64,000 nt of DNA from Hormiphora californensis (taxonomy: Eukaryota; Animalia; Ctenophora), in assembly GCA_020137815.1 (NCBI GenBank), contig CM035353.1, positions 2,294,001 to 2,358,000 on the forward strand. The letters run 5' to 3'. This document shows positions 956 to 63,871 of this stretch, in pieces (the first letter of the stretch is position 1; each line of letters opens with the position of its first letter). The notes beneath the pieces are model-generated. The model was not told where the DNA came from. It ran no database searches and was given only the letters and a program-made list of their open reading frames with translations. Position numbers and translations under genes: made by a program.

Positions 956-1960
956 TAGTAGGGACGAATCTTAATTTTTTGACTCACTATTTGGTGGAAA
1001 GCAAATTCCGGTGGTAACCCACCTATTTTGACCCGCTGAACACGATCCCGTTCATAGGCAAGCTCGCAAAAGTGGAGAAAATGCCCAAATCGGCCACGCC
1101 CTTTTACCTGTATTTTCAGCCTGTAGCCAAAAACATAAATCCTCTTAGAATAGGAGTAGAGACAAATCTGAGGGCACTAAAGTGATCAGCGCCCTCGCAT
1201 TAGTGGGGGTAGGTGCTGGAATTAAGTCTCTATCTCATCTGGTTAATTAGATAATTGGATAATTAGGTTTGCACATAACCGTTTTTTGGCTATATGGCTA
1301 TAGCCACTTAGGAATGGTTTAGAGACTTTTCACTGGCGCCAGTTTGTAGGCAATGGCCAAGTTATGGGGGGTCGACGTCGGACTTTTAAGCTCTATCTCC
1401 AACCGTTTAGCCGTTATTGGGCTAAATCGATGCTCAAAATGAGCGAAAAAACGGTAAAAAGCCCGATTTTGAGCATCGTTTAGGCGCAATAACGGCTAAA
1501 CGGTTGGAGATAGAGCTTAAAAGTCCGACGTCGACCCCCCATAACTTGGCTATTGCCTACAAAATGGCGCCATTGAAAAGTCTCTAAACCATTCCTAAGT
1601 GGCTATAGCCATATAGCCAAAAAACGGTTATGCGCAAACCTAATTATCCAATTATCTAATTAACCAGATGAGATAGAGACTTAATTCCAGCACCTACCCC
1701 CACTAATGCGACGGCGCTGATCACTTTAGTGCCCTCAGATTTGTCTCTACTCCTATTCAAAGAGGATTTATGTTTTTGGCTACAGGCTGAAAATACAGGT
1801 AAAAGGGCGTGGCCGATTTGGACATTTTCTCCACTTTTGCGAGCTTGCCTATGAACGGGATCGTGTTCAGCGGGTCAAAATAGGTGGGTTACAACCGGAA
1901 TTTGCTTTCCACCAAATAGTGAGTCAGCCACTTCTTTTTATAAGAGATTCGTCCCTACTA
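956..1960. mobile_element. ~1 kb foldback (palindromic) non-autonomous DNA element
   Basis: Termini TAGTAGGGACGAATCT / AGATTCGTCCCTACTA, arms near-perfect up to ~1450, CTG on both flanks. Confidence 0.85.
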
Positions 1961-2221: not shown

Positions 2222-2398
<177 letters not shown>

Positions 2399-2868
2399 AC
2401 CTTCTCAATTACATCCTTGATCTAGGTACGGTGAAACTGAGGACACGGCAGTACTGGGTAAACCCTCTTGAAAAGAAATGCTACAAAGATATTGAAACGA
2501 CAGCTACTTTAACAGTTGCTGGGGAGCATGCGTGTGAAATGACGACAGTTCCAATGGATAGTTAGTCTGGTTATTTCCATCCAATAATAATGTTGGTATT
2601 TGCTCATTTAATTAAAAATTATATTAATTAAATAATTAATTACCTTTGTTGCCATCCCCCAAAGTAGTTTGTCCACTTCCAAAGGTAGGCCTGGTACCCG
2701 TCATGTGTTACAGGCGACATTGCCGCCCCCAAGTATCAAACTCACATGCTAGACAGAGGTTAGGACGTGGTCATTTGTGTGTTTCGTGGTAGCATTAAAA
2801 ATAGAAGTTCAAGGTATACTTAAAAAATGAAATTTCATACACAAATATTTACAAAATAATAAAAAAAT

Positions 2869-3958
2869 TCACTCATCATCTTCGTCATCACCAAAAGACA
2901 AAAGAGTTTTATTTTTCACACCCTTTTTCTTCTCTTTATTTTTCCCCTCAACCTTAGCCTTCTTGCTCTTGTTGAAGCCCAACTCGTTACCTTCCCTCTT
3001 CTTAGGTTTTTTAAACCGAATCTTCCCATCCGCTGGGGGTTCTTCTTCTTCTTCTATCTCGGCTGAGGAAGAGAACAAACTGTTAGATCTATGTGTACAA
3101 ATTGTGTACAAAAAGCATACATGTGACAATAGTTTGTTTTTCTGTCTTGAGTCTTCACACCATGAGAGATAGGGTATCAAGATAAATAACAGTTCAGTTT
3201 GGTTTGCCATCAATCGACCCGGAAGGCGGTCTGAGATCCGCTAAACTACCGGTTTAATTTGATGGGGTACTGCAGAGCAGGAACCGACCGAAACAAGTAA
3301 ACAACCAATCAGAACTCGTTATTTAGGTCACGTGACTGGTTATCAGTCAATCAGGGACCAGTTTTTCCTGATTCGGTCGGTTCCTGCTGCAGAGATACAT
3401 GTGATACAGTAGCATACATTACATATATGAACTACTAACGAGTGTGAAAAATGGTATATATCTCAACTCACCTAGTACCGCTGCTGATTCAGTCCCCTCA
3501 TCTAGTTGCTTCTGTTCAGCGAGAAATGTCTTGGCCTCCTCAGCACTCAGATGTTCACTTGACAGCTGCACAACCTGCGGCTCCTCCTCTGCTCTATCAA
3601 TAGGTCTCTAAAGAGAGAGAGTTGAGGTTTAATAGCATAAATAGGTCTCCATAGAGAGTTTAGTAGGATCGGCGGGTCTCTATAGAAATAGCATCAATAA
3701 GTCTCTATAAAGAGTTTAATAGGATCGGTGGGTCTCTATAGAAATAGCATTGATGACTTGTTGAGGTATGTTGAGGTTAATGTCATGTAGAAATGAGGGA
3801 TAATGGCTAGCGAATAAATGCAGTAACCCTACCTTTTCTTTGTCCAATTTAGCTTGTTTATCCGTTACATCATGCTCAACGTATCCGGTCTCCTCCTTGA
3901 ATTTCCGCAGAAAACTAGGCTCCTTTTTCACATATGTCAATCCAGGCTCCCGTGGCAT
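2869..3958 (-). CDS. KIAA1143-like protein, copy 1; exons 3958-3833, 3607-3472, 3062-2869
   Basis: Phase-consistent exons give MPREPGLTYVKKEPSFLRKFKEETGY..EEEPQVVQL..ADGKIRFKKP..KNKTLLSFGDDEDDE, the KIAA1143 motif pattern. Confidence 0.85.
3278..3386. mobile_element. 109-bp hAT-type MITE (TIR CAGGAACCGACCGAA)
   Basis: 8-bp TSD CTGCAGAG on both sides. A degenerate equivalent lies at ~7890-7992. Confidence 0.9.
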
Positions 3959-5252
3959 ATTGTCTTCTGTACAAAATAGAGGATTGTTAAAAACATTATA
4001 ATATCGATCGGTCAACGATAAAAAATTAAAAATTTCAACATCGATCAGAAAAACAAACAGGTTGCATATAGGAAATGTATGTGAAAAGTATAACATTTTG
4101 ATGCACATACAAATGTTCGACAATTAATGTTCGACAATTTAATTACACGTAAAGGTGACTAAACACACAAAGGAAAATAACAAAAGTTCTTATCCTTTTT
4201 TTTGTCAAATTAGTCTGTCGCACACATACATTTTTCAGCCCGTTGTATATATTCTCTCCCTCGCACACTCACACACATGGCAAAACAAATAAATAGAAGA
4301 TGACAAAATAAAAGTCTTTAAAATACACGAGATCGTGTAGTAGAACAGTCAAACACACAGACTCAAACACCTCTATATAACATATGACATGTATTCCAAC
4401 AGTTTTGTGTATGTGAAAGTTGAACAACAACTCAGTTCCAGTTGTGGAAAAGTGAAAGTGTCACAAGAAGGTGAGAAAAACAAACCGGAACTCAATTTAT
4501 AACACCGCGCCTTCCATCCGTTGCACCGAACACAAAAAAAAACATGGGAAACAGTACTTTGGAGAGGGTAACAGTACTTTGAAGAAACAGAAACGAGATT
4601 GATGAGGTACAGTACAGTTTTAACAACAGCCTGTTAGGGGGGAACAAGTGTTAAATACAGCTCGACCTACAAAACTGTATTTCAAATACAGATAGACCTA
4701 TGATACTGTATTTCAAATACAGATAGACCTATTATAATACTGACACCCATTTCACCCAAGCAGCCCAATAAATGCAGATCTATCAGAATCTTACAGGATA
4801 AGTATCGGATAATTGTTTATGAGCCGCATGATAATTGTTTGTTGGGATGATATCTCCTTCCGGCTTCAATCAATCAGGACAAAATGAAAAGCGGTGTTTT
4901 TATTAACGAACAGTTTCGATGTTACAACATCTTCCTCAGCCTACAAAATTTGGAAAATTGGTTAAAATCAAATCACATAGCTGTACACACACTGCAATAC
5001 TAATATAAGACTAAAAATAAAGTACTAAATAACTAAATAACTAAATAACTAAATAAATAACTAAATAACTAAAATGGGTAATAACAAAATCTAATAATCT
5101 AAGTCTACAAATCTAAATATCTAAAATACCAAATAATGATAACTACTCAACATCTCAAACCTAGGGAGATGAGAAAAGATGATATTTAAACATCAACGCA
5201 GATATTTATACGACATCTTTTCTCTCTCTCTCTCTCTCTCTCACTCTCTCTC

Positions 5253-5298
<46 letters not shown>

Positions 5299-5631
5299 GA
5301 CTCTATCTCTTCCCTTCTATCTAAACTACTATCGAAAACTGGATCACGCGATCTAACTGGTAAAGTAACGGACATAAAGAAATCAGATCTGAATAATTAA
5401 TGAAATACATAAATTAAATAAATTAAATAAATTAAATAACTAAAAATCTGGTTAAATCTGTCATCTCTTCCTTTAAATTAATAGTCGGTTTCAATCTATG
5501 AATAAATGACGCTTCAATAATTTTCCTGTATAACATTTTAGTCTCAGTTGCTAATATACTAAAGCTAAGATTCGGAGTGGTGTTCGGAGCGTAGTTCATC
5601 CCCATCACATGTTGAACAGTCTCGGGAAGTA

Positions 5632-6273
5632 GTGGATAACCTGCTCCTGGCTAATGGATACACAGATCCCCGTACTTTTGCTTTCGACACCCATATCTCA
5701 AACCATCAACATCGGAACGAGACTACAGAGGAACAGGTGATTCTAAAGCTACCGTACATAACTGAGGGCTTCAGTGACCAGGTTACTCGGTTTGTCATTT
5801 CAAACAACCTTCCCATCAAGATTGTGTTTACGCCAGGCAGGAAGTTGAGAGAGATCTTCTGCTCTTCTAGACCTAGAGATGGACTACCAACTTGCCATCT
5901 AGCGAACTGTAAAATTTGCCCTATCCTTACAGACGGACATTGTCAAATTATTGCCCCTGTTTATAAAATTGAGTGTGTGTTATGTGGCGAAATGTATGTA
6001 GGAGAAACGGGCAGGACTGCCAAGGAAAGACTCTCTGAGCATCTTCGCTGTGCGAATTCTCCCTCAGCGAAGTCGTACAGAGAGAAAGCCCTTGCACTCC
6101 ATTACAGTACCTTCCACCCGAACACCACTCCGAATCTTAGCTTTAGTATATTAGCAACTGAGACTAAAATGTTATACAGGAAAATTATTGAAGCGTCATT
6201 TATTCATAGATTGAAACCGACTATTAATTTAAAGGAAGAGATGACAGATTTAACCAGATTTTTAGTTATTTAA
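5632..6273 (+). CDS. Penelope RT thumb remnant plus GIY-YIG endonuclease (truncated)
   Basis: LKLPYI..IVFTPGRKL..C..C..C..C..VYKIECVLCGEMYVGETGRTAKERLSEH..IIEASFIHRLKPTIN. Confidence 0.88.
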   Translation: MDNLLLANGYTDPRTFAFDTHISNHQHRNETTEEQVILKLPYITEGFSDQVTRFVISNNLPIKIVFTPGRKLREIFCSSRPRDGLPTCHLANCKICPILTDGHCQIIAPVYKIECVLCGEMYVGETGRTAKERLSEHLRCANSPSAKSYREKALALHYSTFHPNTTPNLSFSILATETKMLYRKIIEASFIHRLKPTINLKEEMTDLTRFLVI

Positions 6274-6406
6274 TTTATTTAATTTATTTAATTTATGTAT
6301 TTCATTAATTATTCAGATCTGATTTCTTTATGTCCGTTACTTTACCAGTTAGATCGCGTGATCCAGTTTTCGATAGTAGTTTAGATAGAAGGGAAGAGAT
6401 AGAGTC

Positions 6407-6450
<44 letters not shown>

Positions 6451-6756
6451 GAGAGAGAGTGAGAGAGAGAGAGAGAGAGAGAAAAGATGTCGTATAAATA
6501 TCTGCGTTGATGTTTAAATATCATCTTTTCTCATCTCCCTAGGTTTGAGATGTTGAGTAGTTATCATTATTTGGTATTTTAGATATTTAGATTTGTAGAC
6601 TTAGATTATTAGATTTTGTTATTACCCATTTTAGTTATTTAGTTATTTATTTAGTTATTTAGTTATTTAGTTATTTAGTACTTTATTTTTAGTCTTATAT
6701 TAGTATTGCAGTGTGTGTACAGCTATGTGATTTGATTTTAACCAATTTTCCAAATT

Positions 6757-6800
6757 TTGTAGGCTGAGGAAGATGTTGTAACATCGAAACTGTTCGTTAA
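6757..6800 (+). ncRNA. Putative minimal hammerhead ribozyme in the pLTR (mirror copy 4903-4946, minus strand)
   Basis: CTGAGGA-A-GATGTT gt AACATC-GAAAC. Core boxes and stem II are intact; stems I and III are weak. Confidence 0.6.
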
Positions 6801-7480
6801 TAAAAACACCGCTTTTCATTTTGTCCTGATTGATTGAAGCCGGAAGGAGATATCATCCCAACAAACAATTATCAGAATCTTAAACACACAGTAAAACTGA
6901 AAGACATACACCGCTTGAAATCCTAACATTTAACAAACCCTTTGGCTTTTGGGTGGTTCCCGTTTTTCCCGGGGGGTTACCTGTAGAGGTTTTTTTCCTT
7001 CCGTTTTACTTTAGTTTTATTTTGTTGGTTTTTGCTGGGGCCATTCCCTCCATCCTTTAACTGATATACGTAAACCCTCTTGAAAAGAAATGCTACAAAG
7101 ATATTGAAACGACAGCTACTTTAACAGTTGCTGGGGAGCATGCGTGTGAAATGACGACAGTTCCAATGGATAGTTAGTCTGGTTATTTCCATCCAATAAT
7201 AATGTTGGTATTTGCTCATTTAATTAAAAATTATATTAATTAATTAATTAATTAATTACCTTTGTTGCCATCCTCCAAAATAGTTTGTCCACTTCCAAAG
7301 GTAGGCCTGGTACCCGTCGTGCGATACAGGCGACATTGCCGCCCCCAAGTATCAAACTCACATGCTAGAGAGGTTAAGACGTGGTCATTTGTGTGTTTCG
7401 TGGTAGGATTAAAATAGAAGTTCAAGGTATACTTAAAAAATGAAATTTCACATACAAATATTTACAAAATAATAAAAAAT

Positions 7481-9627: not shown

Positions 9628-11077
9628 TTAGTTGGGTCGGTTATACTGCTGTACACCAGGGGGTGTGGAGCTGTAGTAGTTGTTCATTCCACTTCCAAAG
9701 CCACTTGAGTTCATATTGTTGTTGTTGTTGGCAGGTGCAGCGGGGTTGTAAAATTCTGAGCTATTTCCAAACATTCCTCCCGGCTGGGCGCCCTGAGTGG
9801 TGAGGAGGTGGGGCTGAGTGGTGAGGTGGGGCTGTTAGGTGGGGCTGAGTGGTGAGGAGGTGGGACTGAGTGGAGGAGGGGGGCTAAGTGGTGATGCTAA
9901 CGAAGGTGAGAGTGGGATAAGGACTATTGAGGTAGCCCTGTGGCTTAACAATTGATCATCTTACGATTGTGGACATACCTGGTGATCGAAATTAGATGTT
10001 TTCTTGTTCAGATTATTTGCAACTGCCACCGACAGGCTACTAGCGATAGAAACCATTGCCGCCTGAGCAGACGTGGTATTCTCATGATGGAGTGCATTCA
10101 GAGCAATTTTAATGCTCTCTACTAACATCCGAGTAGTCCCCGGAGTGTTCTGTTCCGCGACCGTGGCTAATAGGGGTGTAAAAGCGCTGATTAGGGCAGT
10201 GGCAGTAGCGTTGTTGCCACCTCCATATTGGTTCCTATTTGGTTGCTGTTGAGGGGGTGGTGGAGCAATTGGATATCCACCTCCTCCACCGAACTGATTT
10301 CCACCACCATAGGGGTTGCCAAAGGATGCCTGCTGCTGCATTCCCCCTCCTCCTCCTGCACTGTTCCTAAAATGATTCCGTTTCGAATCCTCTCGTTCAT
10401 CAAAACCGGACGCATTTCGTTTCATTTTATCAGCGGGACTATCAGCATGTTTAACAACGATCGGAGAATTGCAACCATCCATGGTTTGTGATTGGTGCAT
10501 CTCCTTGATAGCTTGGAGGCACGAGCTAGCCTTGGCAAACTTGACAAATCCACATCCCCGGCTCGTCTTTTCGCCATTGATCACTGCAGAGAGGGGATAA
10601 TGGTAAGCAAACAAATACCAGACACACTCAAAAATGAAAGATCAGTGACTTACTAGATGTCAAGATGTTGCAGTCGATAACTTCGCCAAACTTTGCAAAC
10701 ATTGCCTTGAGTTCGTCGCCATTAAGACTCTTCGAGATCATCCCAACAAAGAGACGCTTATCGAACTTCTTGTTGTCATCATCGTGTACTGCCTTAATCT
10801 GCATCTCCTTCTTGGCGCCAGGTAGGGCAATACGATCATGCATTTCGTGCATTGCATTTTCAGCGTTGTCCAGATTAGCAAAGGTTACAAATGCGCATCC
10901 CTTATGAGTTTTAGTATCCCGGTCTCTACATACTTTGATGTTAACCAATGGTCCATATTTCTCAAAATACGGTTTTAAATCCGATTCCTCGAAGTTCTTT
11001 GGCACTTGCCCAACGAAGAGTTTTAGCGTCATGTCCATTACGACCTCATTGTTGTGATACTTAGCGATCAGGGACAT
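9628..11077 (-). CDS. CELF/Bruno-like RNA-binding protein; exons 11077-10654, 10583-9979, 9792-9628
   Basis: RRM1 KLFVGQVPK..HKGCAFVTF; RRM2 RLFVGMISK..SRGCGFVKF..MHQSQTMDGCNSPIVVKHAD; low-complexity tail; exon phases consistent. Confidence 0.9.
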
Positions 11078-11591
11078 TGCACTGACGGGGACCAGCGGTA
11101 ACGGGAAAAAGTTGAGTCTGTTGCGAAACAAACGTTAGAGAAACGCGTTGTGAGAAAATCCAAGTTTTCTGTTTTAAATTTTCAACGCGCGTGATGCCGC
11201 GGCAGATAAAAACATTCGCGCGGCGTCAAATTGCAGTTTAAAATAATTTTTTAAGCGCCCGTCTGCAGACATACTATGTACATTGTACATACCGTACAGA
11301 GCTGTTCAAGGATCTAAAAGGAGGCAGTCAGTGAGGCAGTCGAAGGACCATGAAAGGACCCACTTAGCAAATTTACTAAACGAGGTTTTGGCTAAGAAGA
11401 AAATAAGTTAAATTAAAAATGTCACTTCCGCAGATTTCTCTAAACAAAATTTGCCATCTTGGGCGGATATCAGAGACGTAATAAAGGAAACATACAACTT
11501 CGTCAATTATAAAAACCCCACGGCCTGTCCCAAGTGTTAATAAGTTAATACATGACGACTCATTTCGATGTAAAAAAGACAGTCTAAGCCC

Positions 11592-25200: not shown

Positions 25201-28200
25201 TTATTTATTAAGGGGAGATGGCCATGGGAGGTTGCCCGAGCATCCCGGTAAATCGGGGTTCGACTGAAGTATAGCAAACTATTGTAATGTGTGTACCAGC
25301 CTGGTACTATCAGGTACACCAGGGTTAGAACATAACAAGTACCGCACATGTATAGCAACGAATTGTAATGTGTGTACCAGCCTGGTACACTATCAGGTAC
25401 ACCAGGGTTAGAACATAACAAGTACCGCACATGTACCTGGGTAACAGATGTGAGGCCAAGGAGTTCCTGTTTCAGTGGTGGTCCGAGTTGGGTGGTGCCG
25501 GGTATACAACATGCTATTCCATGTCCCCCAAAGAAGTACTCGTTACCATACACGACCACCGCTGTATGCCAAATACCCTCTATCCGTCTGTGTGGATTAG
25601 AGATTAGACACACTTTAGAGAGAGAAACACCCTCGATCCGTCTGTGTGGATTAGAGATTGAGATTAGAATTTAGAAAGAAACACCCTCGATCCGTCTGTG
25701 TGGATTAGAGATCGAGATTAGACTTTAGAAAGAAACACCCTCGATCCGTCTGTGTGGATTAGAGATTGAGATTAGACACACTTTAGAGAGAAACACCCTC
25801 GATCCGTCTGTGTGGATTAGAGATTGAGATTAGAATTTAGAGAGAAACACCCTCGATCCGTCTGTGTGGATTAGAGATTGAGATAATAGACACACTTTAG
25901 AGAGAAACACCCTCGATCCGTCTGTGTGGATTAGAGATCGAGATATTAGACACACTTTAGAGAGAAACACCCTCGATCCGTCTGTGTGGATTAGAGATTG
26001 AGATAATAGACACACTTTAGAGAGAAACACCCTCGATCCGTCTGTGTGGATTAGAGATTGAGATTAGACACACTTTAGAGAGACACACCCTCGATCCGTC
26101 TGTGTGGATTAGAGATTGAGATATTAGACACACTTTAGAGAGAAACACCCTCGATCCGTCTGTGTGGATTAGAGATTGAGATTAGACACACTTTAGAGAG
26201 AAACACCCTCGATCCGTCTGTGTGGATTATAGATTTAGATTAGACACACTTTAGAGAGACACACCCTCGATCCGTCTGTGTGGATTAGAGATTGAGAGAT
26301 TAGACACACTTTAGAGAGAAACACCCTCGATCCGTCTGTGTGGATTAGAGATTGAGATAATAGACACACTTTAGAGAGAAACACCCTCGATCCGTCTGTG
26401 TGGATTAGAGATTGAGATTAGACACACTTTAGAGAGAAACACCCTCGATCCGTCTGTGTGGATTAGAGATCGAGATTAGACACACTTTAGAGAGAAACAC
26501 CCTCGATCCGTCTGTGTGGATTAGATATTGAGATTAGACACACTTTAGAGAGAGACACACCCTCGATCCGTCTGTGTGGATTAGAGATTTAGATTAGACT
26601 TTAGAGAGAAACACCCTCGATCCGTCTGTGTGGATTAGAGATCGAGATTAGACACACTTTAGAGAGAAACACCCTCGATCCGTCTGTGTGGATTAGAGAT
26701 TGAGATTAGACACACTTTAGAGAGAAACACCCTCGATCCGTCTGTTTGGATTAGAGATTGAGATTAGACACACTTTAGAGAGACACACCCTCGATCCGTC
26801 TGTGTGGATTAGAGATTGAGATTAGACACACTTTAGAGAGAAACACCCTCTATCCGTCTGTGTGGATTAGAGATTGAGATTAGACACACTTTAGAGAGAC
26901 ACACCCTCGATCCGTCTGTGTGGATTAGAGATTGAGATTAGACACACTTTAGAGAGAAACACCCTCGATCCGTCTGTGTGGATTAGAGATTGAGATTAGA
27001 CACACTTTAGAGAGAAACACCCTCTATCCGTCTGTGTGGATTAGAGATTGAGATTAGACACACTTTAGAGAGAAACACCCTCGATCCGTCTGTGTGGATT
27101 AGAGATTTAGATAATAGACACACTTTAGAGAGAAACACCCTCTATCCGTCTGTGTGGATTAGAGATTGAGAATAGACACACTTTAGAGAGAAACACCCTC
27201 GATCCGTCTGTGTGGATTAGAGATTTAGATTAGACACACTTTAGAGAGAAACACCCTCGATCCGTCTGTGTGGATTAGAGATTGAGATTAGACACACTTT
27301 AGAGAGAAACACCCTCGATCCGTCTGTGTGGATTAGAGATTGAGATTAGACACACTTTAGAGAGAAACACCCTCGATCCGTCTGTGTGGATTAGAGATTT
27401 AGATTAGACACACTTTAGAGAGAAACACCCTCGATCCGTCTGTGTGGATTAGAGATTGAGATTAGACACACTTTAGAGAGAAACACCCTCGATCCGTCTG
27501 TGTGGATCACAGTGGGTAACGACCCTACAAAGTGGGAAAAAAGTTGTCTTTAAATTTGCTGAAATTTGGATATCGATTGTAAAAATAATCAAGGTTTCAC
27601 GTAAAACAAACCGCATCGAAAAATATTGAGATTTACAGATTTTATGTTAGTTTGAAGTTGAGGGAAATTGTGGGGTTTCATTTTGGCTGTGAAATTCGCT
27701 TAGATCCATGTGCACACTACTGCAATACCTTTCATTCTTTTTCTTTCATTTCTTTTGTATCGTGATGGTTGTTTTGTGTTCTTTTCAGTGACTAGGGTTC
27801 AATATGTCTTACTCTAACTGTTTTTTCTCAGTCGCGTGTGTCAAATTTAGGCTATTTTTAGGGTATGAATGACCAAAAAAAGTTACTTCGCCACTCGACG
27901 CCAAGATTTTCATTGTGATATTCTGACTCTCTGGACAATTTGGAACATTGTGGTGTCGCGGGAATTCCCCACTTTTCCCCCGTTTGAATTTTATAGCCAT
28001 TTAAAGTGCGAAATTTAAGCGATTTTTCGCTTTTTCGGCTTTTATGTGTAAAATGCCTGATCTAAAATGGCATATAACTCAAAAACGGTTTGATTTAGGC
28101 CATATGTTGCTTCATAAGTCCTATATAAACATGCACATTCCGGACAATTTGCATCAAAAATTGGATCTCTAAGTGGTTCCTGAGCCAAGTTACGTTTTTA

Positions 28201-28979
28201 CTTAATCAAGTTATTAATTAGCTAATTAATTTTCTTCAAATATCTCAAAAAGGTGGCATCTAAGCACTCTGAAAAGTGTCTAAATCGCTTTCTAGGCACG
28301 GTTTTAGTCTAGGAGAGGTCACTTTGGCCCAAAAATATGATTTCTACGGCATATATTTCATTTTGTAGGGTCACACAGGAAAATTACCCACTGTGTGGAT
28401 TAGAGATTTAGACACAGTTTAGAGAGAAACACCCTCGATCCGTCTGTGTGGATTAGAGATTGAGATTAGACACACTTTAGAGAGAAACACCCTCGATCCG
28501 TCTGTGTGGATTAGAGATTTAGATAATAGACACACTTTAGAGAGAAACACCCTCTATCCGTCTGTGTGGATTAGAGATTGAGATTAGACACACTTTAGAG
28601 AGAAACACCCTCGATCCGTCTGTGTGGATTAGAGATCGAGATTAGACACACTTTAGAGAGAAACACCCTCGATCCGTCTGTGTGGATTAGAGATTGAGAT
28701 AATAGACACACTTTAGAGAGAAACACCCTCGATCCGTCTGTGTGGATTAGAGATTGGGATTAGACACACTTTAGAGAGAAACATCCTCGATCCGTCTGTG
28801 TGGATTAGAGATCGAGATTAGACTTTAGAGAGAGATATTTTAGAAGAAAACACATAGACACAGTGATCTGCTAACATGTATTTTCACTGCACGATTTACC
28901 TGCCAAGGATGAACGGAGAGATATTCTTGGCCATCCCATTACTCAAGTCATACACGTAAAGGGTAACTGGTGTCGTCAT
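22239..28979 (-). CDS. DeSI1-like PPPDE isopeptidase with C-terminal extension; exons 28979-28900, 25587-25437, 25034-24943, 24577-24479, 24321-24072, 22371-22239
   Basis: VTLYVYDLSNGMA..LGRRIEGIWHTAVVVYGNEYFFGG..YNLLENNCNNFSDEVAKFLVG..LPQRVLSSPMG. Catalytic His and Cys present; phases consistent. Confidence 0.88.
22719..23827 (+). CDS. Mucin-like, probably GPI-anchored glycoprotein; exons 22719-23540, 23759-23827
   Basis: Signal peptide, 17 x EASNTTVAAT, tail DSGCSRMFGGTITILLVAVYLA*. Confidence 0.8.
25575..28835. repeat. ~58-bp satellite (~40 units) filling DeSI intron 1, split by a transposon
   Basis: Unit ACACCCTCGATCCGTCTGTGTGGATTAGAGATTGAGATTAGACACACTTTAGAGAGAA. Confidence 0.95.
27508..28395. 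mobile_element. Non-autonomous Transib/RAG-like element, 888 bp
   Basis: Termini CACAGTGGGTAA / TTACCCACTGTG; 5-bp TSD TGGAT (27503-27507, 28396-28400); bipartite TIR. Confidence 0.85.
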
Positions 28980-33683: not shown

Positions 33684-33721
33684 CAAACTTTTCAACACTA
33701 CTTTAAACAAATTAATTTGAG
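33684..33721 (+). other. Spliced-leader exon copy fused to the LINE 5' end
   Basis: CAAACTTTTCAACACTACTTTAAACAAATTAATTTGAG matches the ctenophore SL as recalled. It is not followed by a GT donor. Confidence 0.75.
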
Positions 33722-33757
33722 GCGGCACCCCCCCCCCCCCTCAAATCATTTGCAGCT

Positions 33758-35050
33758 ATGTCCGATGATGCAGGAATAGTGGAGACAGTGTTGGCGAACT
33801 TGAGGACAGCGGCTGGTGCCAAGGGTGCGAAAGCTGTCGAAGTTTACGAGTTTGAGGATAGCCACGAGGAAAACGTTAGCCGGATGAAAGTTAAGACTAA
33901 CGATGAACTGAAACCGGTATGTAAGGTTCTGGGAGTACCGCTGGTGGGACGGGACGGGAAATCTCGAGACAAGCGAGAGCTGGCGGACAAGATAGTTCTC
34001 CAGATAGAAACATTGTTTCCCATTGACTGTCAAGACTGCGGGGAAAAATACAGGATCGAACTTGGGAAAAAACCCATATTGAGGTGCTTTCTGTGTGGGC
34101 AAGGGGCACACGCATGTAAGTTCTCAGTAGAGGGAAGCAGACTTGGGTCTGTATGGTTATGCTTTTGCTGCTGGAAGAAAAATGAGGAAAATACCGACAG
34201 GGAGGAGCAGAACCAAGACCCGAATGAGACGGAGGATGAGAAGACAGTCGGCACCGAGAAGGATGGTGACGAGAAGGTCGACGCTGACGACAACAAGGCG
34301 GCAGAGAAAAAAGAAGATACGAGGAAGAAAGGTACAGAGGATGGGGACAAAACATTGGAAATTAACTCCGGAAATGTATGCAGTTACTTTCTGAACAAAA
34401 ATTGCAGACACGGCAGAAAAGGAGATCAGTTGGTGAACGGAAAGGCATGCCCAAAACTTCACCCGGTACTTTGCAAGAGATTCTGCAACTATGGAGGTTC
34501 CAAACGTTATGGCTGCATCAAGGGAACACAGTGCAAGTTTCATCATCCACCCCTGTGTAAGGGTTCCGATGCAAGAAGGGCGTGCTACGACAACCAGTGT
34601 AGAATGACACACCTATTGCACACTAGTAGGACGAGAGAGGAACCCCAGAACCCCTGGAAACCAGAAGGGTCAAAGCGGACAACGGCATGGAAACCCTCTG
34701 CTCAGGTAGGAGACACAGCAGACACGGCGTTTAGAGCTAAGCGGCAGAGGAAAATGCTGGAGACAGAAAAAGTGGGAGGACCAGTAACTAAGGAGTTTCT
34801 CCTGGAGACACTGGAAAAGATAAATGCCGAACCTCGTAAAGAGAAACCAGAAGTGAAGAGGGAAGAGCCCCTAACAAAGGATTTTTTACTGAAAGCACTG
34901 GAGGTCATGAAGGCAGAAATACAGCAATCGGTGGTTCTACAGTTGCTGGAGTTCAAGACTCAGGTGGTGGATCCGCTAGGGGGAGGAAATATGAAAACAA
35001 CTTGGGGAACAGCAGGAATACACCCCATACTTCAAAATTTCACCTCCTAA
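33758..35050 (+). CDS. LINE ORF1 with PHD-like finger and three CCCH fingers
   Basis: CQDC..CFLCGQGAHAC..WLCFCC; C..CRHG..CPKLH, C..C..CKFHH, C..C..CRMTH. Confidence 0.85.
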   Translation: MSDDAGIVETVLANLRTAAGAKGAKAVEVYEFEDSHEENVSRMKVKTNDELKPVCKVLGVPLVGRDGKSRDKRELADKIVLQIETLFPIDCQDCGEKYRIELGKKPILRCFLCGQGAHACKFSVEGSRLGSVWLCFCCWKKNEENTDREEQNQDPNETEDEKTVGTEKDGDEKVDADDNKAAEKKEDTRKKGTEDGDKTLEINSGNVCSYFLNKNCRHGRKGDQLVNGKACPKLHPVLCKRFCNYGGSKRYGCIKGTQCKFHHPPLCKGSDARRACYDNQCRMTHLLHTSRTREEPQNPWKPEGSKRTTAWKPSAQVGDTADTAFRAKRQRKMLETEKVGGPVTKEFLLETLEKINAEPRKEKPEVKREEPLTKDFLLKALEVMKAEIQQSVVLQLLEFKTQVVDPLGGGNMKTTWGTAGIHPILQNFTS

Positions 35051-37986
35051 ATGCCAGGAGTTTTTGTCCATCCGCGGAGACTACCTGGAAACTTGAGGTG
35101 GTACGAGACATGGTGGACGACGAGACCACTCCTGTGGCTTTCCTGGGCATAACGGAAACCTGGTGGAGAGGGTATATGGCGGAGGCCCAGCTGAAGATTT
35201 CTGGATATAACCTGGTGAGATGCGATAGGCAGGGCAGGATAGGAGGAGGATGTGCCCTGTATGTCCACTCTAGCCTCGCTATATCAGATCAAGTGGAGTA
35301 TTCGGACACAAGTAACAACCTGGCAGCCGTCTATATGGGCAACACCCACTCAATAGTGGCAGTTATATATCGAGCTGGTACAGATGCAACAGCTTTTCAG
35401 AGACTGGTGAAAAAACTGCAGACGTTTATTGATACTCATAGCTGGGAAAAAACAGTTCCGGACCTGTGGTTGATGGGTGATTTTAATCTCCCACTCCTGA
35501 AATGGAGAGGAGGGTTGCATGAAACTATTGACCATCCCTTGTACAATATTATGGGTAACTTGGTAGACGATAATTCTCTCAGCCAAATGGTCAATTTTCC
35601 TACCAGAGGAGAGAACGTCTTAGATCTGGTGCTAACCAACCGTCCCGATTATGTCCTTTCAACTAGGGGTGAGGACCTCGGGATTTCTGATCATGAGATG
35701 GTTACATGTACCCTGACCTACAATTGCACGGCGAAGCCTCCCATGGACGATCGTGTTATGTCAGACTTTGCGGAACTTAATCTTTTAAAAGCTGACTTTG
35801 ATAGGCTAAACTCTGTCTTTGACGAGGTGGAATGGGATCAGCTTCAACTACTGTGTACAGAAATGGAAGACCCCGATAGTAGCTTCTTAGAGGTAGTGAG
35901 ACTTACGGTCCTCCAGGTCTGTAAGATCTTCACTGAGCTGAAACGTTGGAAAAGTAAACGGAAGGACAAAACACTCCGGCACCTTCGTAGCAGGAGAAGA
36001 AAGTTGAACAAGAGAATGGTAAACGCAAAAGGCACGACGAAGCTGAAAATTGAGGAGTTGGCCGGGAAAATAACGCTCGCCATCAAAGCTCATGTTAAAG
36101 AAAAGGAGCAGGGGGATGAAGAACGAGCTGCTTCCGCAGTCAAAGTGAACCCTAAATTCTTCTACAGTCATGCTAAATCTCTATCCAAGGTCAAATCTGC
36201 GGTGGCTCCACTCGAGAGGCAGGATGGTTCGCTTACTACGAACTCGAAGGAGAAAGCAGAACTCCTACAGAGTCAGTATGTTAGGGTGTTTAGCAACCCA
36301 CTGGACGTGGACCCTGAAAAGGCAGTGGAGAACATTGAGGAAAAGGAAGCGGAAATAACTGACATCAGCTTCACGAAGGCGGACATTGAACAGGCACTAA
36401 AGGAACTGAAACCGAATTCAGCGGCCCCTCCTGGTGACATACCGTCCATAGTCTTGAAGAACTGCCGTCGAACCTTGTCCTATCCCATCTGGATTATATG
36501 GCAGTCCTCGTTTGAATCTGGTACAATACCACCCGTTATGAAGGAGCAGTTCATCTGCCCCATTTTCAAGAAAGGTGATCGTTCAGCACCAGGGAACTAT
36601 AGACCAGTATCACTGACGTCTCATCTTTCGAAAACCTTTGAGAGAATTATCAGGAATCATCTGACTGAGTTCCTAGAGAGGGCAGAACTACATTGTAACG
36701 GACAACATGGGTTCAGGAAAGGGAGAAGTACAATGACTCATCTGCTCGCACACATTGACAGGGTTCTCAAACATCTAACGGATAACAACGAAGTTGATGT
36801 GCTATATCTGGACTTCCAGAAAGCGTTTGACCGGGTTGATACTGGGGTCCTACTGAGAAAACTACAAAAATATGGTGTACGAGGAAAGCTACTTGCCTGG
36901 ATCAAGGAATTCCTAACAAATAGGAAGCAAGCAGTGCTAGTGGATGGGGAGCAGTCGCGGTGGGAGTGGGTCCTAAGTAGTGTGATCCAGGGAAGTGTGC
37001 TGGGCCCTATTTTGTTCATCTTTTACGTAATCGACTTGAAGGAGTCTTTGTCAAGTGCTGACGCTTTGTCGTTTGCAGACGACACGAAGCTCATACAGGT
37101 AATACGAACATTGCTAGACCAGGCAGAACTCCAGAAGGACTTGGGAAATGTGAGTCAGTGGTCTCTGACTAATAATATGAGACTTCACGAGGAAAAATTT
37201 CAACTGGTAAACTACTCGCTAGGCAGATCTAAACTCCTGAGAGAGCTGCCTTTCACTGCAGAAACCTTATCCTATATTACTTCGGGAGGAACTGTGGTGG
37301 AGCCAGAGCAGCATGTGAAAGATTTGGGCGTTTGGCTATCGGCGGATGGTACGTGGACTCATCACATTGGTGATATTGTGAGGAGAGCTAACATGATGGC
37401 AGGATGGATATTCTGTGCATTCAGGAGTAGATCCCGTGAGGTACTGCTAACCCTATATAAGGCGTTGGTTCGACCCATTTTGGAATACTGCTGTTTGGTG
37501 TGGTATCCAACGAGAATCGCTGACATCCAGGCAGTAGAGAACGTCCAACGGGCATTTACCCGGAAAATCCAAGGGATGAAGGAGCTGGACTATTGGCAGC
37601 GTCTAGAGGCGCTGGATCTCATGTCCCTCCAGAGAAGACGTCAACGATATGAGCTGATACACGTTTGGAAAATCTATCACGGGCTAGTACCCAACTGTGT
37701 GCAAATGGAGTTCCAGATTGGCCGGTTGGGAGTCCAGGCAAAGACACAGAAATACCCTTACTGGGCAGATTCCAAATGGGCAGGTCAGTTGTACAACTCT
37801 TTCAGCTTCAGGGCACCTCAACTATGGAACAGACTCCCTCGAGAGGTTACTCTTTCAGGAACACTTCCTGGGTTAAAGGCTAACTTGGGTGCATTCATGA
37901 AGCAATTCCATGACAGACCACCGGTGCGTGGCTACACGACGGTCCCAAATGATTTCAGAGAGGCAGGAAGAAAGAACTTTGTGTGA
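35002..37986 (+). CDS. LINE ORF2, APE endonuclease plus reverse transcriptase
   Basis: NARS, GITETW, MGDFN, LDLVL, SDH; NYRPVSLTS, QHGFRKGRS, LDFQKAFD, QGSVLGP, FADD, DLGV. Confidence 0.95.
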   Translation: MGNSRNTPHTSKFHLLNARSFCPSAETTWKLEVVRDMVDDETTPVAFLGITETWWRGYMAEAQLKISGYNLVRCDRQGRIGGGCALYVHSSLAISDQVEYSDTSNNLAAVYMGNTHSIVAVIYRAGTDATAFQRLVKKLQTFIDTHSWEKTVPDLWLMGDFNLPLLKWRGGLHETIDHPLYNIMGNLVDDNSLSQMVNFPTRGENVLDLVLTNRPDYVLSTRGEDLGISDHEMVTCTLTYNCTAKPPMDDRVMSDFAELNLLKADFDRLNSVFDEVEWDQLQLLCTEMEDPDSSFLEVVRLTVLQVCKIFTELKRWKSKRKDKTLRHLRSRRRKLNKRMVNAKGTTKLKIEELAGKITLAIKAHVKEKEQGDEERAASAVKVNPKFFYSHAKSLSKVKSAVAPLERQDGSLTTNSKEKAELLQSQYVRVFSNPLDVDPEKAVENIEEKEAEITDISFTKADIEQALKELKPNSAAPPGDIPSIVLKNCRRTLSYPIWIIWQSSFESGTIPPVMKEQFICPIFKKGDRSAPGNYRPVSLTSHLSKTFERIIRNHLTEFLERAELHCNGQHGFRKGRSTMTHLLAHIDRVLKHLTDNNEVDVLYLDFQKAFDRVDTGVLLRKLQKYGVRGKLLAWIKEFLTNRKQAVLVDGEQSRWEWVLSSVIQGSVLGPILFIFYVIDLKESLSSADALSFADDTKLIQVIRTLLDQAELQKDLGNVSQWSLTNNMRLHEEKFQLVNYSLGRSKLLRELPFTAETLSYITSGGTVVEPEQHVKDLGVWLSADGTWTHHIGDIVRRANMMAGWIFCAFRSRSREVLLTLYKALVRPILEYCCLVWYPTRIADIQAVENVQRAFTRKIQGMKELDYWQRLEALDLMSLQRRRQRYELIHVWKIYHGLVPNCVQMEFQIGRLGVQAKTQKYPYWADSKWAGQLYNSFSFRAPQLWNRLPREVTLSGTLPGLKANLGAFMKQFHDRPPVRGYTTVPNDFREAGRKNFV

Positions 37987-41130: not shown

Positions 41131-63871
<22,741 letters not shown>

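Follow-up and report, generated by a model that had tools for sequence, protein, structure and literature searches.

A probable Transib-type element in a satellite array

The window examined here is a 64,000-nucleotide stretch of the genome of the ctenophore Hormiphora californensis (assembly GCA_020137815.1, contig CM035353.1, positions 2,294,001 to 2,358,000 of the forward strand); all coordinates are those of the window. It contains a 58-bp satellite array broken by an 888-bp element with a GC content of 36%, which is very probably a non-autonomous transposon of the Transib superfamily. An earlier reading of the bare sequence, hereafter the original prediction, had likened the ends of the element to a 12/23 pair of recombination signal sequences (RSSs) and had expected a partner element, possibly with a RAG2-like gene. 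Published sources are cited by PubMed Central (PMC) identifier. The element, its target site duplication (TSD), and the target DNA are located as follows, TIR standing for terminal inverted repeat.

25571–28823, no strand: 58-bp satellite array (target DNA), broken by the element
27503–27507, plus strand: left TSD copy, TGGAT, 5 bp
27508–28395, minus strand: non-autonomous Transib-type element, 888 bp; assigned to this strand by analogy with its relatives, whose 3' TIR is the end with the 1-nt spacer (Tao 2022 supplement)
28396–28400, plus strand: right TSD copy, TGGAT, 5 bp

The two ends of the element are marked by CACAGTG, at 27508 on the plus strand and at 28395 on the minus strand. When flanks of 2 to 11 nt were compared, TGGAT was the sole match. 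Deletion of the element together with one TSD copy regenerates GTGTGGAT/TAGAG, a satellite junction that occurs intact 38 times in the array, and the insertion splits a single satellite unit. The clean TGGAT duplication first noticed against the host satellite was thereby confirmed; it is the record of one insertion, and its G/C content is 2/5, Transibs being known to prefer GC-rich targets. The TSD is intact, the TIR blocks match and the surrounding satellite is uniform, which suggests that the insertion is young, and recent mobility of the element is plausible.

The satellite unit to the right of the insertion (28396–28441) lacks 5 nt of the consensus length and carries one substitution. Comparison of positions 27498–27507 with 28391–28400 reveals that the five target bases beside the left TSD copy are the same as the terminal five of the element (CACAG, minus strand). 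Landing 5 bp from a heptamer-like site, a single case noticed post hoc, may be due to chance or to a target preference.

The ends are bipartite and asymmetric

Each end consists of CACAGTGGGTAA and an inner block that begins with GACCCTACAAA; the spacer between them measures 1 nt at the left end and 11 nt at the right.

27508–27519, plus strand: 3' TIR block 1, CACAGTGGGTAA (heptamer and 5 nt), identical to the other end over 12/12
27521–27534, plus strand: 3' TIR block 2, beginning GACCCTACAAA, after the 1-nt spacer at 27520; from end-to-end comparison
27537–27545, plus strand: A-tract 22 nt past the heptamer, in agreement with the Transib consensus nonamer at 7/9 (consensus from PMC1131882)
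27608–27634, minus strand: subterminal stretch, 24/27 to the 3' subterminal region of PbaTransib_8175; from a motif scan of the window
28359–28372, minus strand: 5' TIR block 2, after the 11-nt spacer (28373–28383); from end-to-end comparison
28384–28395, minus strand: 5' TIR block 1, CACAGTGGGTAA, identical to the other end over 12/12

The inner block, block 2, begins at position 14 of one end and position 24 of the other. It is identical between the ends over 11/11 nt, or 13/14 when three further bases are included. As a shared run of 11 nt was found in none of about 20,000 random interior pairs (somewhat fewer in fact, close pairs having been skipped), the inner block is not a chance match. 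Eleven of the 12 bases that had been taken for an RSS spacer are common to both ends, and the supposed nonamer corresponds to the last part of the inner block. An A-rich, nonamer-like block of the Transib type is present about 23 nt past the heptamer, scoring 7/9 at spacer 22 on the left and 6/9 at spacer 21 on the right, although such scores discriminate poorly where the DNA is AT-rich. In both Pleurobrachia elements introduced below, block 2 of the 3' end is likewise followed by an A-tract of this kind (by eye).

Further inside, the 5' half of the element (28142–28346) contains weak direct repeats at 166–175 nt spacing (73–87% over 15–30 nt), possibly by chance.

Ctenophore Transibs share the ends

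Six ctenophore Transib-like proteins were described by Tao et al. 2022 (PMC9435367). That study defined a subgroup I, characterized in the transposase by an alpha11-alpha12 region and by CTT1, all members of which, those from ctenophores included, have asymmetric TIRs; sequences of five ctenophore records are given in its supplement. The 11/1 spacing is present in all three of the ctenophore subgroup I records that have both ends labelled, namely PbaTransib_0868 from Pleurobrachia bachei and MleTransib_3931 and MleTransib_2823 from Mnemiopsis leidyi, a count made by eye that leaves out MleTransib_6236 (no TIR label in the text) and PbaTransib_8175 (3' end only). The asymmetry thus belongs to the family, as had been proposed. 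The 11/1 spacing may already be stated in the figures of that study (Fig. 1g and supplementary TIR alignments).

PbaTransib_0868 carries CACAGTGGGTAA at both ends, like the element. Its spacers are of 11 nt (5') and 1 nt (3', a C) and its inner block begins with GA, again as in the element (by eye); its TSD is also of 5 bp, CTGTC. It differs in being 3,582 bp long and in having a transposase, whereas the 888-bp element has none. The 3' end of PbaTransib_8175 is identical to the left end of the element over 15 nt (by eye). In addition, the 27 nt lying 94–120 nt from that 3' end match positions 27608–27634 at 24/27, that is, 101–127 nt from the left end of the element. This 27-nt motif was matched in none of 100 shuffles, with an all-against-all expectation of about 1.6e-4. 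To judge from its relatives, the left end is the 3' end and the element lies on the minus strand.

MleTransib_3931 and MleTransib_2823 share the CACAGTGGG start and the 11/1 spacers, with the inner block at position 24 (5') and 14 (3'). In each, block 2 is matched between the element's own two ends at 13/15 nt (by eye). Positions 10–12 and block 2 are unlike those of the element, and predicted transposase genes are present in both records. Across the two ctenophore orders, the 11/1 spacing is therefore kept despite diverged sequences of the spacer and of block 2, while block 2 remains matched between the ends within each element (by eye).

The predicted proteins of PbaTransib_0868 and PbaTransib_8175 lack the C-terminal Cys/His tail of those of MleTransib_3931 and MleTransib_2823 (by eye, from low-scoring and unaligned gene predictions). 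CTT1 is nonetheless attributed to subgroup I (PMC9435367). If the difference were real, the closest enzymes would rely on another domain for the inner block.

Likeness to recombination signal sequences

The original prediction of an exact CACAGTG at both ends, spacers of 12 and 22 nt and nonamer scores of 5/9 and 6/9 was reproduced at 27508 and 28395. With spacer 12, the left end has ACAAAGTGG, 5/9 to ACAAAAACC, and with spacer 22 the right end has ACAAAATGA, 6/9. Within the element, however, with a tolerance of ±1, scores of at least 5/9 are reached at 17.7% of positions and scores of at least 6/9 at 6.3%. Nor are the two 9-mers independent of each other, since each is a copy of the same block. 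Spacers of 12 and 22 fit the 12±1 and 23±1 rule, yet the left end also reaches 5/9 at spacers 20, 21 and 22. Given this and its score of 7/9 to the Transib consensus at spacer 22, the left end could equally be named a '23-like' end.

Positions 5 and 6 of the RSS nonamer, both A, have been called essential (PMC1131882). The right 9-mer has AA at these positions; the left 9-mer has G at position 6. At the nonamer register of the short-spacer end, the relatives score 3/9 (PbaTransib_0868), 1/9 (PbaTransib_8175), and 4/9 and 2/9 (MleTransib_3931 and MleTransib_2823), and ACAAA at this register is found only in the present element and not in its closest relatives (by eye). The nonamer scores are at chance level, and the ACAAA is likely a chance likeness. 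The ends fail as an RSS pair by the nonamer test; the heptamer match is exact. The proposed mimicry of a 12/23 pair by way of the nonamer was not supported.

What is shared with the vertebrate 12/23 RSSs is the exact heptamer and an inner block shifted by about one helical turn. The differences are an offset of 10 rather than 11, a left position 6 that is not A and the chance-level nonamer match. Moreover, spacers vary among vertebrate RSSs, but of the 12 bases in the supposed spacer 11 are here common to both ends. The heptamer and the one-turn offset are probably shared with the RSS by descent, and the likeness to the signals at which antibody genes are cut is likely a known trait of the family, not a new system.

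Other searches in the element and window

Rfam gave no match over 27400–28500. No RAG or transposase family was found among the frames of at least 85 aa scanned with Pfam in the window (104 of 116, 12 simple-repeat frames having been left out). A window scan for CAC...GTG pairs with a 5-bp TSD and at least 11/14 matching TIR bases returned only this element.

Two candidate ends were discarded as chance occurrences. A lone CACAGTGGGTAA at 43866 lies in the reading frame of a G-protein-coupled receptor (GPCR) and has no partner end within 15 kb. The one metagenome match to the two TIR blocks (L001:7151–7180) lies in a primase-like open reading frame (ORF; by eye) of a prokaryote-like contig of 54% GC, with a spacer of 7 and no partner end.

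A palindromic repeat of about 615 bp is present in two copies in the window (1141–1758 and 62593–63213, the second with 163-bp subunits). A 20-nt stretch of it matches the interior of the element at 17/20, which is not significant (E about 7).

Interpretation and alternative explanations

The element is proposed to belong, as a non-autonomous copy, to the ctenophore Transibs of subgroup I and to be moved in trans by a RAG1-related transposase that would be encoded elsewhere and is predicted to lack a RAG2-like partner (probability about 0.88). Assignment to the Transib superfamily, which agrees with the original prediction of a RAG1-like family, follows from the 5-bp TSD with its restored empty site and from the CACAGTG TIRs with their 12/12 block; ends and subterminal DNA both match published ctenophore Transibs. 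Subgroup I is indicated by the asymmetric bipartite TIRs (spacers 1 and 11), the terminal identity of 12–15 nt to ctenophore members (by eye) and the subterminal match of 24/27, a placement based on the DNA ends. Through the ends of PbaTransib_0868 and PbaTransib_8175, the element is indirectly linked to a putative RAG1-core-like DDE transposase. In keeping with a non-autonomous element, it contains no ORF of more than 67 aa, and none of its 28 frames matches Pfam.

Several points weigh against this interpretation. Short Transib remnants may escape Pfam. A cognate transposase was found neither in the element nor in the window, and a blastn search of the window with the element returned no second copy. 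The 3'-end pattern gave no match in a genome-contig or a viral-contig collection, but both are poor in animal DNA and these negatives carry little weight. Published ends were compared by eye, one motif being computed, and this 27-nt motif was picked after the likeness had been noticed. The 11-nt spacer and block 2 of the Pleurobrachia elements differ in sequence from those of the element (block 2 in about 6 of its initial 9 nt, by eye), and because block 2 differs, the published elements are relatives and not the direct partner. Lastly, the five bases outside the left TSD copy and the last five of the element create a 10-nt direct repeat across the junctions, so that the length of the TSD is formally ambiguous.

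It is this direct repeat that would allow entry by recombination, or membership of another CAC-ended superfamily such as Chapaev or CACTA. Both 12-bp TIRs are left whole only if the TSD is read as 5 bp, and the ends match those of transposase-bearing Transibs. TSDs of Chapaev and CACTA elements are of 2–4 bp. A 5-bp TSD marks Transib, the only eukaryotic superfamily then known to generate one (PMC1131882), and these alternatives appear extremely improbable; the original prediction had itself named a Chapaev or CACTA-type enzyme as the finding that would overturn it. With one copy at hand, the 10-nt difference could also be imagined as a private indel in an element with symmetric TIRs. The same offset, at positions 14 and 24, recurs in all three of the published relatives with both ends labelled, which argues that it is no such indel, and this explanation is given next to no weight.

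A further alternative is that these are the ends of a RAGL transposon with two genes, RAG1L and RAG2L, comparable to PflRAGL-A; its heptamer-spacer-nonamer code would be genuine, its pairing of the 12/23 type, and it would be the first in ctenophores. The exact RSS heptamer, the 10-nt offset and the A-rich 9-mers at the 12 and 22 registers would fit, and PflRAGL-A does have a heptamer, a spacer whose asymmetry is 10 bp and a nonamer-like block rich in A and T (PMC10462144). However, both the ends and the subterminal DNA match those of ctenophore Transibs with a single gene. In PbaTransib_0868, one gene occupies positions 2273–4886 of the record and only 394 and 574 nt are left to the TIRs, so that a RAG2L gene would not fit. 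In RAGL TIRs, an A-rich TR2 of 9–10 bp adjoins the heptamer (PMC10462144), where the element has GGTAA, of 5 nt, at both ends; the nonamer scores, in addition, are at chance level. Ctenophore Transibs are listed in the accessible text of Tao et al. 2022 (PMC9435367) and no ctenophore RAG2L is mentioned there, while Transibs encode no RAG2-like protein (PMC4840297, PMC10462144). By its own gene content, with neither RAG1L nor RAG2L, the element is not a RAGL transposon. The two-gene explanation is thus very improbable, and a RAGL partner for this family, judged from the sequences compared, is unlikely; the RAG2-like partner once expected is not what the single transposase gene of PbaTransib_0868 points to.

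If the element is a subgroup I Transib, mobilization would begin with a subgroup I transposase acting in trans. The enzyme would nick and then form hairpins at the CAC border of the heptamer, as HzTransib and RAG do; nick-hairpin cleavage and 5-bp TSDs are documented for HzTransib (PMC4840297). Both ends would then be joined to the target with a 5-bp stagger, the repair of which would create the TSD. The 10-nt offset, to judge from the relatives, would be inherited and selectively maintained. The odds are roughly even that block 2 serves as a second site of protein binding, shifted inwards by one helical turn at the 5' end so as to stay on the same face of the helix, and that the enzyme can thereby distinguish the ends and favour a 5'/3' pair. 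Block 2 might then be the functional counterpart of the nonamer, its sequence drifting between families.

It is tentatively envisaged, though considered unlikely, that ctenophore Transib transposases devoid of RAG2 enforce a one-turn pairing rule, cutting 1-spacer ends only together with 11-spacer ends by means of a domain resembling the nonamer-binding one, and that the 12/23 rule was intrinsic to the RAG1 ancestor and predates RAG2. A requirement for asymmetry is favoured by ProtoRAG, which prefers its asymmetric pair and for which spacer length matters in cells (PMC8289069). Somewhat short of even odds is the alternative, directed at this functional step only, that the family is the same but the offset plays no role in pairing, the enzyme needing no more than roughly the outermost 12 bases, with an inner block that is passive or a site for a host factor. 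Such a passive role agrees with the TIRs of HzTransib, which are heptamer-like but hardly nonamer-like (PMC4840297), with the small effect of losing the inner TR5 block on ProtoRAG cleavage in vitro (PMC8289069) and with the loss of the need for an asymmetric substrate by RAG1 alone, suggesting that the 12/23 rule comes from RAG2 (PMC4840297). These three observations count against a function of the offset. No functional test of it in subgroup I was found in the literature searched, subscription papers not being covered. A passive inner block is harder to reconcile with the 11/1 spacing kept across two ctenophore orders and with the matching of block 2 within each element.

The constancy of the spacing across ctenophore families, while the sequence of the inner block turns over, argues that it is the spacing and not the nonamer sequence that is conserved. 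Should a RAG2-less enzyme need the offset, this would bear on whether the 12/23 rule arose in the RAG1 ancestor or with RAG2, the latter being favoured in PMC4840297. A still-mobile family whose inner block has grown nonamer-like would then be a natural substrate with which to show an intrinsic rule. The present element supplies a substrate and no enzyme; the published Pleurobrachia and Mnemiopsis elements supply both.

Relation to described elements

Insect Transibs with 12/23-like ends (Transib5, Transib2_AG and TransibN1-N3_AG) were described in 2005 (PMC1131882), and Transibs with such ends are discussed in PMC8355894. They share with the element the superfamily, the 5-bp TSD and one end longer by about one turn, and non-autonomous families are known among them. 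They differ, as compared by description, in that their 5' end is RSS12-like and their 3' end RSS23-like, whereas the short-spacer end of the element is the 3' end according to its relatives. The RAGL transposons PflRAGL-A, AanRAGL and ProtoRAG likewise have bipartite asymmetric TIRs, a CAC start and a 5-bp TSD. Their layouts vary, with a 10-bp asymmetry in PflRAGL-A, blocks of 13 and 10 bp with spacers of 4 and 13 in AanRAGL, and 27/31 in ProtoRAG. In contrast to the element, RAGL transposons encode RAG2L, and in PflRAGL-A and ProtoRAG a TR2 block adjoins the heptamer. No likeness past the heptamer was seen between the ends of AanRAGL or FcoRAGL and those of the element.

No description of a non-autonomous ctenophore Transib family was found in the literature searched, which did not extend to subscription papers, Repbase or Dfam. 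With the element, the known ctenophore Transibs of subgroup I very probably gain a new member, a non-autonomous one; the asymmetric layout of the subgroup is already in print.

Genomic context

The satellite and the element lie within the first intron of a predicted gene, and the remaining features of the window include further genes and mobile elements.

25588–28899, minus strand: intron 1 (GT-AG, 3,312 bp) of a peptidase gene of the PPPDE/DeSI type, containing the satellite and the element; joining of the exons deduced from the open reading frame
43013–45298, plus strand, and 52014–55181, minus strand: two long intronless LDLa-type GPCR-like genes; closest relatives of the second in P. bachei
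33716–37986, plus strand: seemingly intact two-ORF retrotransposon without long terminal repeats (non-LTR), with a 444-aa ORF1 without Pfam match and a 1,048-aa ORF2 with endonuclease and reverse transcriptase
4829–6874: GIY-YIG ORF (5569–6273) flanked by 759-bp inverted repeats, 99.7% identical
9961–11134, minus strand: RRM-domain gene

The animal host, presumed early-branching in the original prediction, was borne out by the best protein matches, which are to Pleurobrachia bachei. Of 10 matches to the intronless LDLa-GPCR, seven had 61–74% identity; the three top ones that were looked up (64–74%) are all from this species. Each unit of the satellite (25571–28823) copies the 3' splice site and the start of exon 2 of the PPPDE/DeSI gene. 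The sequence CACACAG/ACGGAT is present in 40 copies on the minus strand, only the last of which runs into the coding exon. The GIY-YIG element is presumably Penelope-like, and the RRM-domain gene is taken to be CELF-like.

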